In this document: positions 835 through 4,258 of the stretch, piece by piece
How the letters are laid out: the number at the start of each line of letters is the position of its first letter
Position numbering within the stretch: the stretch's first letter is position 1
Origin: a virus
Lineage: Duplodnaviria > Heunggongvirae > Uroviricota > Caudoviricetes
Reading direction: 5' to 3' (one strand)
IMG/VR virus record: IMGVR_UViG_2690316231_000014
Length of the DNA stretch: 4,404 nt
Position numbers and translations under genes: made by a program
Notes under the pieces: generated by a model
What the model was told of the DNA's origin: nothing
What the model saw: only the letters and a program-made list of their open reading frames with translations
Databases searched by the model: none

Positions 835-920
835 CGAATTTCTCCCGTGTAGAGGAACAGAGTTAAAAAGCCGGAAGCGGAATCAAATCACAGGATGACC
901 ATCTGCCAGTGGCAGGTCAT

Positions 921-947
921 AAAAAAAAGGCTGCGCAATGCGCAGCC
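921..947 (-). terminator. Rho-independent terminator for minus-strand transcription (8-bp GC-rich stem, 3-nt loop, U8 tract)
   Basis: Forward 929-947 is GGCTGCGCAATGCGCAGCC, a perfect 8-bp stem (GGCTGCGC/GCGCAGCC) with a 3-nt loop. On the minus strand it is followed immediately by eight T (forward A8 at 921-928). There is no T-run after the hairpin on the plus strand, so it is unidirectional. Confidence 0.7.
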
Positions 948-1376
948 AGAACTCACAAGGAAAATGATAAAAGGAATAACACTAGTGATGTACGCATGGC
1001 GCCTCCCGCTAAGTTCTGCAATGATCAAACAGAACTCGCTACGTGCCCTTAAAACTCGATCATTTAGCCCCTCCAAGGAGGATTCACCATGCGGTTGATT
1101 TTTTAATAAACAGTAAACAAAAAAGTCAAGAATTATTCATTCTGTTCTTTCATCATCGGCCACAGCAATACCACAATGCCGCAGACCAGAGCGCCATCAG
1201 TCAGTACCAACATTATCCTGCTGGTGAAATCCATCATCACCATCACTAAAAGCAGGATCACAACAGCAAGCAGACACAGTTTATAAAACAATGTTCAGAA
1301 AACGCATTCAGCATGCCTAAGGTTCTATTCCTACGAATAGCCAACTTGCAACTTAAAATATTATTTATGCAGCCAA

Positions 1377-2135: not shown

Positions 2136-2279
2136 AACAAAAGCAATTCAATGCCGTCAAGAGGTTACAGGCTAAAAAAACTCTATTACATTGCAGTCAG
2201 CATGTTTACTACACAAATACAATTCAGAGCATAAAAACTACTCGGCGGCAGGTTATTGAGACTCATCAATGACATGTAA

Positions 2280-2335
2280 AAAACGCCCATTATTGGTGTC
2301 AAGTTTCCCCAAAGTTATTCAAAAAGTCAATATTA
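2280..2335 (-). promoter_or_regulatory. Lambda-like late promoter pR' with Q-utilisation (qut) region
   Basis: Directly after the Q stop the minus strand reads GATTGCCACGGATGGCAACATATTAACGGCATAATATTGACTTTTTGAATAACTTTGGGGAAACTTGACACCAATAATGGGCG. From memory this aligns with lambda pR'/qut. The -35 TTGACT is at forward 2330..2325, the spacer is 17 bp, and the -10 position reads GAAACT (2307..2302) where lambda has TAAATT. A -10-like AATAAT lies in the initial transcribed region, as in the lambda pause-inducing element. Confidence 0.55.
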
Positions 2336-2372: not shown

Positions 2373-2996
2373 CTAACGTGTGATCGCATTCAAAATGTTG
2401 TCTGCGATTGACTCTTCCTTGTGGCATTGCACAACCAGAGCGTCATACAGCGGCTTAACAGTGCGTGACCAGGTGGGTTGGGTAAGGTTTGGGATTAGCA
2501 TCGTCACAGCGCGATATGCGGCGCTTGCTGGCATTCTTGAATAACCGACGCCTTTACATCTTCCGCACTCTTTCTCAGCAACTATCCCCCACTGCTCTGT
2601 TTTGGCTATATCAACCGCACGGCCTGTACCGTGGCAATCTCGGCATCTTGCGCCCGGCGTAGCGGCACTACGGCAATAATCCGCATAAGCGAATGTTGCG
2701 AGCACTTGCAGTACCTTTGCCTTAGTATTTCCTTCAAGCTTTGCCACGCCACGGTATTTCCCCGATACCTTGTGTGCAAATTGCATCAGATAGTTGATAG
2801 CCTTTTGTTTGTCGTTCTGGCTGAGTTCGTGCTTACCACAGAATACAGCCATTCCGAATCCGGCTTGTGATTGCGCCATCCCCATAGCAGCCATCACATC
2901 AGTACCGGAAAGAGAGTCAGAAGCCGTGGCCCGTGGTGAGTCGCTCATCATCGGGCTTTTTGGCGAATGAAATTTAGCTATGCTTTCGAGTCTCAT
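2373..2996 (-). CDS. Q: Late-gene antiterminator Q (lambda type)
   Basis: Complete 207-codon ORF, ATG 2996..2994 to TAG 2375..2373. The translation ([44 protein letters not shown] ... [18 protein letters not shown]) is, as recalled, near-identical to phage lambda Q. It carries the paired Cys cluster CRDCHG ... CGRCKG. The start overlaps the upstream stop (ATGA) and it is followed by pR'/qut. Confidence 0.95.
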
Positions 2997-3658
2997 GCGC
3001 CTTCTCCCTGTACCTGAATCAATGTGAGGTTTCCGCAGAACACTGCGCCAGTATCGATATACATCTGGTTGGCAAATTTGAGTGGTTTCACTGCTGGCGT
3101 ATGACCAAAGATGAACGTGTCCGCGCCTTTGATTTCTTTCACGATCCCGTCTTGTGAGTTGCTGATTCGTTCGCGGTTCCAGATTACCTGCTGATGATCA
3201 ACTGGCTTTCCAAACTCGTATTTATCACAAGGATAATCGGCGTGGCAGATGACATATTTTTTTCCTTTACTCACCAGTTCGATGATTAACGGAAGTTCAT
3301 CTGCTTTATGGGCAAGAGCTTTAGCCAGAATTTCTTTGTCGTAATCGAGATTAAAGAACCAGCCACCGCCATTAAGCAGCCAGTGATTGACGTTTCCACG
3401 CTCTGATAAGCCATCAATCATCATGTGCTCATGGTTTCCACGTACAGCTCTGAACCAGGGGAATGTGATTAATTCCAGGCATTCTACGTTCTCTGTACCG
3501 CGATCAACCAAATCGCCCACCGAGATAAGCAGGTCTTTTTTGGTGTCGAATCCTATCGTCTCCAGTTTTTTCATCAGGTTCGTGTAGCATCCGTGCAGAT
3601 CGCCAACTACCCAAATATTTCGGTATTTGCTGCCATCAATTCTTTCGTAGATATTCAT
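2993..3658 (-). CDS. Serine/threonine protein phosphatase, PPP-family metallophosphatase (lambda orf221/NinI-like)
   Basis: Complete 221-codon ORF. The PPP-family signature motifs are read directly: GDLHG, GDLVDRG, RGNHE. Most of the protein ([18 protein letters not shown] ... [26 protein letters not shown]) matches lambda protein phosphatase as I recall it, with a divergent first few residues. ATGA overlaps occur at both ends (with ninG at 3655-3658 and with Q at 2993-2996). Confidence 0.95.
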
Positions 3659-4258
3659 GCAACCTCACTTCTGCTGTTTCGCAGTTTTTTAAGTTTCTGT
3701 TGATACTCCGCCTTGATGGCCCTGCACTCTTCGACAGTCCAGCGATAGCGGTTATGGTTTGATTCGATTTCCTCTACTGCTTCCTGCCCGATGCGGCTAA
3801 TCAGTTCGACGCGATACGGAACGAGATTTCCGCTTTTGTGCTGGTTGCACACCACGCATTGCTTGTGAATATTGCGTTCATCAAATCGGAGTTGAGGCGC
3901 CGCAGCAGTTGTCCGGTAATGTCCGGCATCCCACTGAGCAGACGTGAGCGTTCCGCACGAGATACATGGTAAGTCGCGGTCTCTTTCTCTGATGAAGGCG
4001 TTTACGGCTTGTTGGGCTTGTTTAATCCAGTAACTGCGGGGCTTTAAGGCGAGTTTTCGAATCTTAAGTTTATCTTTCTGTTTCTGCTCCTCTCGTCGTC
4101 GTTTCTTCTCTGCTGCCTTTTCCGCTTTTTCGCGTTCTTTGCTTCGTCGTTCGAGTGCTATCTTGGTTCCACACTCTGGAGAGCACCACCACTGATTGGC
4201 GAATGCAGGGTGAAACCATTCCCGACATTCATCGTTTTTACATCGTCTTCGCGCTGGT

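Follow-up and report, generated by a model that had tools for sequence, protein, structure and literature searches.

Lysogens are reported to transcribe constitutively from the late promoter pR' of lambda, and in Stx phages, in which 258 nt separate pR' from the terminator tR', transcription of stx from the late promoter needs antitermination; stx1 has, in addition, a Fur-repressed promoter of its own (PMC7547250). In the phages that we examined, the distance from pR' to tR' is about 30-200 nt. A second described system that bears on the locus analyzed here is the prophage sRNA PasD, reported in PMC8550237 as an Hfq-dependent sRNA validated by Northern blot, and to which STnc100 is, according to a 2026 preprint, structurally related; the preprint also places PasD genes beside Q genes and beside a gene for a sialate esterase (bioRxiv 10.64898/2026.05.13.724894). 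The passages of PMC8550237 that a search for the term PasD retrieves do not link the sRNA to a late promoter, and in term searches of the preprint neither promoters nor transcription starts come up, and "antitermin" appears only where the adjacent Q gene is named. Literature on tciB, on the tellurite/colicin genes of phage 434, and on the 434 genome yielded nothing usable, and DUF3927 led to one unrelated paper. Q-lambda, qut, PasD, and the DUF3927/TciB-like gene are all known already, and well-studied strains carry the sequence. For one feature we found no description in the papers checked: a join without a terminator, in which the PasD terminator would stand in for tR'.

The window, by which we mean the whole stretch of 4,404 nt that was analyzed, carries all of its genes on the minus strand, for which all coordinates are given. 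NinG comes first in gene order (4266-3655) and is followed by the NinI phosphatase (3658-2993) and by a lambda-type antiterminator Q of 207 aa (2996-2373), which is identical to lambda Q at 201 of its 207 positions (~97%) and matches Pfam PF03589 at 4e-58. A non-coding stretch of ~280 nt separates Q from a gene for a membrane protein of 238 aa, counted from ATG 2093, which we call the cargo gene (2093-1377; phrog_1521, function unknown) and whose product has no match in Pfam or NCBIfam. Then come a gene for a small membrane protein of 52 aa, DUF3927/TciB-like (1291-1133; PF13064 at 3.4e-14; phrog_1470, "TciB-like"), the PasD sRNA gene (1092-921), and the 5' part of a gene for a DUF1737 and SASA carbohydrate (sialate O-acetyl) esterase (834-1; Pfam PF08410 and PF03629). 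The esterase gene runs past the end of the window, and in related loci the lysis genes come next. A tRNA scan of the window returned no tRNA gene; the window therefore has no tRNA block like that of Stx phages.

The late promoter pR' and its putative Q-binding element (QBE), identified by alignment, occupy positions 2330-2302, which align column for column with the pR' regions of lambda, HK446, Emek, and HK542. The depositors' annotation of the aligned site is PR' in HK446 and HK542 and qut in HK542 and Emek. After the Q stop codon, the minus strand presents in order the -35 element TTGACT (2330-2325), identical to that of lambda, the 17-bp spacer with the QBE, TTTTGAATAACTTTGGG (2324-2308), which agrees with lambda at 14 of 17 positions, the -10 element GAAACT (2307-2302), TGACACC, a -10-like pause-inducing element AATAAT (2294-2289), which aligns with AACGAT of lambda, and then GGGCGTTTTTT. 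An earlier, sequence-only reading of this DNA had proposed a lambda-like pR'/qut with an intact TTGACT and 17-bp spacer and a -10 reading GAAACT, with G in first place, and had named alignment with the lambda pR' region as a check. With that alignment in hand, the description stands in each of these respects: all promoter elements are in register, and GAAACT falls exactly in the columns of the TAAATT shared by lambda, HK446, Emek, and HK542. Since the adjacent upstream gene encodes a protein nearly identical to lambda Q that also matches PF03589, the site is, as judged from sequence, the orthologue of the lambda pR'/qut, and a chance match is excluded. By analogy with lambda biology, from which both the start site and the pause function are carried over, transcription is predicted to start at ~2294. 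We considered AATAAT as an alternative -10 and rejected it by eye, as no acceptable -35 lies at 16-18 bp from it. Residues 135-140 of Q did not covary with the QBE variant, the GAAACT qut occurring together with both the ELWGRVV and the EQWGIVA forms of Q. Hence, the components expected of a lambda-type pR'/qut are present here, namely, a Q-lambda gene upstream, a sigma70 promoter with its QBE, and a pause element; the only one lacking is a promoter-proximal tR'.

GAAACT matches the lambda -10 at four of six positions and the consensus at three of six (four of six for the lambda -10 itself), and it retains A and T at positions 2 and 6, respectively, the two most critical bases of sigma70 promoters. 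The G at the first position (-12) had been read as the mark of a possibly weakened promoter, a claim that we do not support, since the lambda sequence has G at the same position in both pR (TTGACT-17-GATAAT) and pL (TTGACA-17-GATACT); on this comparison, G at -12 is no proof of a crippled promoter. The same leader occurs with the canonical TAAATT in four contigs, and GAAACT is therefore the derived state, reached by two substitutions (T-12G and T-8C) that both fall in the -10 hexamer. Relative to a sister lineage (L157), the window shows 8 differences over 279 nt, of which two lie in the hexamer (hypergeometric P of ~0.01, a post hoc value, as the site was picked for that reason), and this clustering may have arisen by chance or through selection acting on promoter strength. 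The two derived substitutions may lower pR' output, and an output moderately below that of lambda pR' is plausible. Overall, we infer that pR' is active with GAAACT as its -10.

Terminators were sought with a hairpin scan that allowed up to 90 nt; with a limit of 45 nt, lambda tR' was missed, the conclusion for the window being the same either way. As controls, the same scan gave -24.3 kcal/mol for lambda tR', -15.2 kcal/mol for the terminator of Emek/HK542, and, for phage 434 tR', -8.5 kcal/mol for the core stem and -13.7 kcal/mol with its A/U extension (z -3.45). In the window, a terminator at 947-929, downstream of both cargo genes, reached -14.7 to -17.7 kcal/mol (z -4.7), and it was the only one found by a consensus terminator scan of the minus strand from 800 to 2500. 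By folding, which detected every control terminator, no stable hairpin precedes any U-run in 2294-2094. The sequence-only reading was therefore right that the promoter and the membrane-protein gene are not separated by an intrinsic terminator and that the three U-runs at 2278-2283, 2233-2237, and 2174-2180 lack a stable stem: the coordinates are correct, the best hairpin reaches -7.3 kcal/mol, and RNA folding predicted no strong terminator in 2136-2290, where one would have spoken against that reading.

Each of the three U-runs has its own context. The U6 run at 2283-2278 would cover roughly positions +12 to +17 of the transcript predicted from pR', where no hairpin is possible inside the transcript, and the sole fold abutting it requires sequence 5' of the start site. 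This run coincides with the place of the lambda sigma70-dependent pause (expected at +16/+17), and a run of five or six U at this site is kept in all three lineages of the leader and absent in lambda, HK446, Emek, and HK542. The U7 run (2180-2174) follows an AU-rich hairpin of 49 nt (2229-2181, -7.3 kcal/mol) closed by a 5-bp basal stem. That weak hairpin lacks conservation, as CCCUG in another sister lineage (L156) and in phage 434 disrupts the basal stem, CUCUG/UAGAG; from folding and comparison, the hairpin and U7 (2229-2174) are a marginal terminator candidate at best. More broadly, the leader segment 2296-2121 (176 nt) is not unusually structured (z -1.4), and the leader at 2094-2335 has no Rfam match at a permissive E-value. 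No Rho/rut-like region was seen in the 201 nt of leader from the predicted start, which contains 14% C, with G exceeding C in every 78-nt window (a heuristic only), and no window with C in excess of G exists between pR' and the terminator.

A non-canonical stop in the leader could nonetheless replace tR' and leave the cargo dependent on Q, as stx is, the candidates being U7 together with the 49-nt hairpin before it (2229-2174), the U-rich sigma-dependent pause, at which the transcript might be released (2283-2278), and Rho. The conservation of the U7 tract in all cargo leaders, the -7.3 kcal/mol hairpin abutting it, and the persistence of U6 in all three lineages at the expected +16/+17 pause would fit such a stop. 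We consider it unlikely, given that the hairpin, with its unconserved basal stem, is far weaker than every control terminator, that the leader is C-poor and has no C>G window, and that in uninduced enteropathogenic Escherichia coli (EPEC) the cargo of prophage PP4 stands 24-67x above Q, as detailed below.

The U-run at 2237-2233 has a recognizable ancestry. Window positions 2254-2233 align with the annotated terminator of phage 434, an annotation made by the depositor of the 434 record, the window reading AACCTGCCGCCGAGTAG followed by TTTTT where phage 434 reads AACCCGCTGCCGAGTGGGTT followed by TTTTTT. Written as an alignment, AACCCGCTGCCGAGTGGGTTTTTTTT of phage 434 stands opposite AACCTGCCGCCGAGTAG----TTTTT of the window, so that the loss of the hairpin in the window comprises substitutions plus a 4-nt deletion. 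The stem abutting the U-run is worth -1.2 kcal/mol in the window, against the -8.5 kcal/mol of 434, and the 48-nt segment folds at -4.7 kcal/mol (z +0.6), against -13.7 kcal/mol; no GC-rich stem-loop thus precedes the U-tract at this position, where the homologous sequence is present and its stem is lost. No hairpin exists at the corresponding position in two rarer sister lineages of the leader either. The homology between the window and 434 starts exactly at the 434 terminator, and because of this and of the alignment just given, the U-run at 2237-2233 is, by sequence homology, the tail of a decayed tR' of the 82/434 type, located at the recombination joint where a lambda-type Q/pR' module meets the cargo leader. 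From this point on, the leader of the cargo gene (2232-2094) is conserved and shared with phage 434.

A further copy of the 82-type tR' is present in Escherichia albertii (at about 2330-2360 of that locus), where it reads AAACCCGCCGCCGAGTGGTTTTTTTT and differs from 434 by a C for T in the left arm and by a missing G in the right arm; it folds through an alternative pairing only (-9.3 kcal/mol, z -2.1). Terminators of the 82/434 type seem to be prone to decay in other contexts too.

The promoter and leader occur in 572 of 5,426 complete E. coli genomes, i.e., about a tenth, and at an identity of at least 99% in 557 of them; many are O157:H7, and EPEC E2348/69 also carries the module. Among 76 loci that contain the cargo start, mostly IMG/VR contigs, two main arrangements are found, one with a Q82-like gene and an intact tR' and the other with Q-lambda, GAAACT, and the relic; wherever a GAAACT promoter was present in an informative IMG/VR stretch, it led into the same leader (66/66). 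The arrangement of the window recurs, with an intact holin and endolysin downstream, in the deposited phage 2B8 genome, and the variant is also present in apparently complete prophage late regions. A scan of genome contigs gave only three loci, and the module is absent from the interval 1.195-1.245 Mb of strain Sakai. In E. coli O157:H7 strain 86-24 (6500-13500 of that locus), the module consists of HNH, NinG, NinI, Q, the cargo, the esterase, and the holin and sits in a heavily degraded prophage with fragments of IS30, IS66, and IS1203 and without an early regulatory region; the part from Q to the cargo survives.

These data also bear on the idea that pR' is effectively dead, in which case the -10 mutations would mark a decaying prophage and the missing terminator would be without consequence. 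Both derived substitutions do lie inside the hexamer, and the prophage around the strain 86-24 module is indeed degraded, contains IS elements, and lacks an early region. Such an explanation is very improbable in our view: GAAACT keeps A2 and T6, its G1 is found in lambda pL and pR as well, the variant is conserved at 99% or more in 557 genomes, and it occurs in late regions that appear complete and in phage 2B8, with holin and endolysin intact downstream.

The terminator at 947-929 belongs to PasD. Window positions 1092-921 are identical to PasD2 (172/172) and 97.1% identical to PasD1 of EPEC E2348/69, seed and terminator included, when both EPEC loci are compared at the coordinates of Table S6 of PMC8550237, and Rfam STnc100 gives a full-length match over 1122-918 that is sub-threshold (41.4 bits versus a gathering score of 47). 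The stem at 947-929 is followed by U8 at 928-921, and we identify this hairpin, from its predicted fold and position, as the PasD terminator and as the first intrinsic terminator after pR', ~1.37 kb from the predicted start. A 62-aa ORF (888-1076, minus strand), which is called a "putative membrane protein" in 434, lies wholly inside the PasD sRNA, whose terminator it spans; as neither Pfam nor PHROGs nor NCBIfam gives a family match, it is probably not a gene. The motif TTGACT (1129-1124), 18 nt, TAAAAA ends 7 nt before the reported 5' end of PasD, and the sRNA therefore probably has its own promoter. Because PasD is 50-75x more abundant than the cargo mRNA in both PP4 and PP2 of EPEC and because its 5' end fits such a promoter, PasD is not mainly a product of pR'.

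We propose that a working lambda-type late control site (pR', QBE, and sigma70 pause element) was joined by recombination to the leader of a widespread cargo block composed of the membrane protein, the DUF3927/TciB-like protein, and the PasD sRNA, and that the 5' edge of an 82/434-type tR', whose hairpin would have been destroyed here, marks the joint. RNA polymerase leaving pR' without Q would then encounter no intrinsic terminator for ~1.37 kb, would cross both cargo genes, and would stop at the PasD terminator at 947-929; because unmodified polymerase would first stop there, the PasD terminator would replace tR', and Q-modified polymerase would read through it into the esterase and lysis genes. 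If GAAACT fires at all, read-through into the cargo is expected, because the sequence contains no stop signal before the PasD terminator. In this proposal, pR', as opposed to a promoter in the conserved leader, would supply a material share of the cargo transcripts. We assign a probability of about 0.5 to the reading that cargo expression is due in part to read-through from pR', probably alongside a promoter of the cargo, and that the PasD terminator acts as a Q-gated barrier for the esterase and lysis genes. A more far-reaching version strikes us as doubtful: the PasD terminator would have taken over the role of tR', so that the constitutive "short" pR' transcript, which is 6S RNA in lambda and StxS elsewhere, would here be a 1.37-kb mRNA encoding two small membrane proteins and ending with an Hfq-binding sRNA. 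Lysogenic conversion would then need no dedicated promoter, and selection would have favored T-12G and T-8C because they temper the constitutive expression and still allow Q-dependent late transcription.

Expression data from EPEC E2348/69 are instructive because this strain has both arrangements, a lambda-type Q in prophage PP4, whose leader from the Q stop codon to the ATG is identical to that of the window, and a 434-type locus with an intact tR' in PP2. The values considered here are DESeq2 BaseMean values from Table S2 of PMC8550237, obtained for virulence-activating and non-activating cultures, for which no phage-inducing treatment is mentioned. In PP4, the early genes E2348C_0997-1009 were all below 7 in the non-activating culture, and Q was at 6.0 in the activating and 1.35 in the non-activating culture, the membrane gene at 147 and 90, PasD1 at 8652 and 502, and the holin gene at 5.4 and 1.2. 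In these uninduced cultures, the signal thus rises 24-67x from Q to the cargo and drops by a similar factor after the PasD terminator, at the holin. In PP2, the activating culture gave 69 for the Q82-like gene, 226 for the membrane gene, 37 for the DUF3927 gene, 11017 for PasD2 (1476 in the non-activating culture), 102 for the esterase, and 3.5 for the holin; the cargo copies of PP2 and PP4 are 98.25% identical, so their reads are only partly separable.

Because the PP4 cargo stands so far above Q, with both Q and the holin low, these data support that the cargo is transcribed independently of Q in a lysogen that has the leader of the window. Two proposals of the sequence-only reading, that the cargo is expressed in the lysogen without Q and that the locus departs from the Q-dependent stx paradigm, are in this way borne out, the latter also by the lack of a tR' upstream of the cargo. 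Its third proposal, that the missing tR' causes the lysogenic expression, fares less well. The PP2 cargo, behind an intact tR', is expressed at an equal or higher level (226 versus 147), from which it follows that loss of tR' is not needed for cargo expression, and a cargo gene is also found without Q or pR' in the locus of Escherichia sp. MOD1-EC7003 described below. It is possible that the PP2 signal comes from read-through of tR'(82).

Does the cargo have a promoter of its own? Directly upstream of a Shine-Dalgarno sequence, GGGGTGG (2102-2096), and of ATG 2093 lies a match to the promoter consensus, TTGTTA (2140-2135), 18 nt, and TG-n-TATCAT (2116-2111). It agrees at 9 of 12 positions and has the TG in addition, and since shuffles of the region yield 4.8 such sites, it is not significant alone. 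In diverged copies, the -10 TATCAT is unchanged, and the -35 is TTGTTA in the MOD1-EC7003 locus and TTGTTG in L157. In-frame ATGs exist upstream at 2120 and at 2135, from which the longest ORF begins, and RefSeq and the 434 record place the start at ATG 2120; ATG 2135 is replaced by GTG in L157, and both L157 and the MOD1-EC7003 locus keep or improve the Shine-Dalgarno sequence and ATG 2093. On this comparison, ATG 2093 is probably the start codon. The 434 depositor recorded a pattern match to a CII site over the start codon, which we treat as a coincidence.

In Escherichia sp. MOD1-EC7003 (2390-3990 of that locus), a remnant of the cargo gene (94% aa identity) is found beside bioA, in surroundings that we take to be the neighbourhood of the lambda attachment site. 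Homology begins ~110 nt upstream of the cargo ATG, and the remnant also comprises the downstream small-gene region and a truncated N-terminus of the esterase, without Q, pR', or lysis genes.

From these observations comes an alternative to read-through that we regard as quite possible, though we do not favor it. The cargo would be a self-contained moron, transcribed in the lysogen mainly from a promoter in its own leader (e.g., 2140-2111, with a start at ~2104), with PasD produced from TTGACT at 1129-1124, read-through from pR' being minor and the decayed tR' a tolerated by-product of recombination. Of the features expected of a moron, the terminator is present (947-929); a candidate for the promoter is the match at 2140-2111, and the cargo persists without pR' in the MOD1-EC7003 locus. 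The similar cargo levels behind the intact (PP2, 226) and the decayed (PP4, 147) tR' point in this direction, as do the retention of the cargo next to bioA without Q or pR', with homology from ~110 nt 5' of the ATG, the promoter-like site placed directly 5' of the Shine-Dalgarno sequence and largely kept in diverged copies, and the PasD 5' end 7 nt past TTGACT-18-TAAAAA. Against this weigh the modest quality of the match, with 4.8 such sites in shuffles, the partly ambiguous assignment of reads between PP2 and PP4 copies that are 98.25% identical, and the fact that read-through of tR'(82) would explain the PP2 signal equally well; in addition, pR' transcripts meet no stop in the window before the PasD terminator, so that some contribution of pR' is hard to avoid if it fires. 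We therefore retain the reading in which pR' contributes, probably alongside a cargo promoter.

If pR' indeed runs into the cargo, the locus would illustrate a simple route to constitutive expression of conversion genes in lambdoid prophages, in which tR' is lost and the cargo's own terminator gates the late operon, a route not described in the papers checked. It would also tie PasD, an abundant and virulence-linked sRNA, and two uncharacterized membrane proteins to the Q antitermination switch. The case further cautions against taking all genes located between Q and the lysis cassette to be Q-dependent in the way stx2 is. If, in turn, the cargo has its own promoter, the finding shrinks to a decayed terminator at a recombination joint.

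Compared with the pR'-qut-tR' region of lambda, which produces 6S RNA, the window has a near-identical Q, the same -35, the same spacer length, a similar QBE, and a -10-like pause element early in the transcribed region, all at the same position after the Q stop codon. It differs in its -10 (GAAACT versus TAAATT) and in its pause element (AATAAT versus AACGAT). Furthermore, the lambda tR' hairpin abuts its U-run ~190 nt past the start implied by the alignment, whereas the first terminator of the window is ~1.37 kb away, and two protein genes and an sRNA gene, unlike in lambda, lie between pR' and that terminator.

Phage 434 and the 82-type loci share with the window the cargo block (99.4% identity) and, beginning at the terminator position, its leader, but in phage 434 the block is preceded by a Q of the Q82-like family with its own promoter and by an intact tR' hairpin directly 5' of the cargo leader, the hairpin that is decayed in the window. 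The PasD1/PasD2 family (EcOnc13; Rfam STnc100) matches the window both in the sRNA sequence, identical to PasD2 over 1092-921, and in the order of Q followed by the sialate esterase, the context given for PasD in the preprint (bioRxiv 10.64898/2026.05.13.724894). Finally, the window resembles the pR'-tR'-stx region of Stx phages, in which StxS is made from the terminated pR' transcript, in that cargo lies between Q/pR' and the lysis genes, that constitutive activity in lysogens is described for the late promoter, and that the first terminator also forms the 3' end of an Hfq-binding sRNA (PMC7547250). StxS and PasD differ in origin, the former coming from the terminated pR' transcript and the latter probably from a promoter of its own, and the two loci differ above all in where the cargo stands: stx is located downstream of tR', whereas in the window the first terminator comes only after the cargo, which is transcribed without Q.
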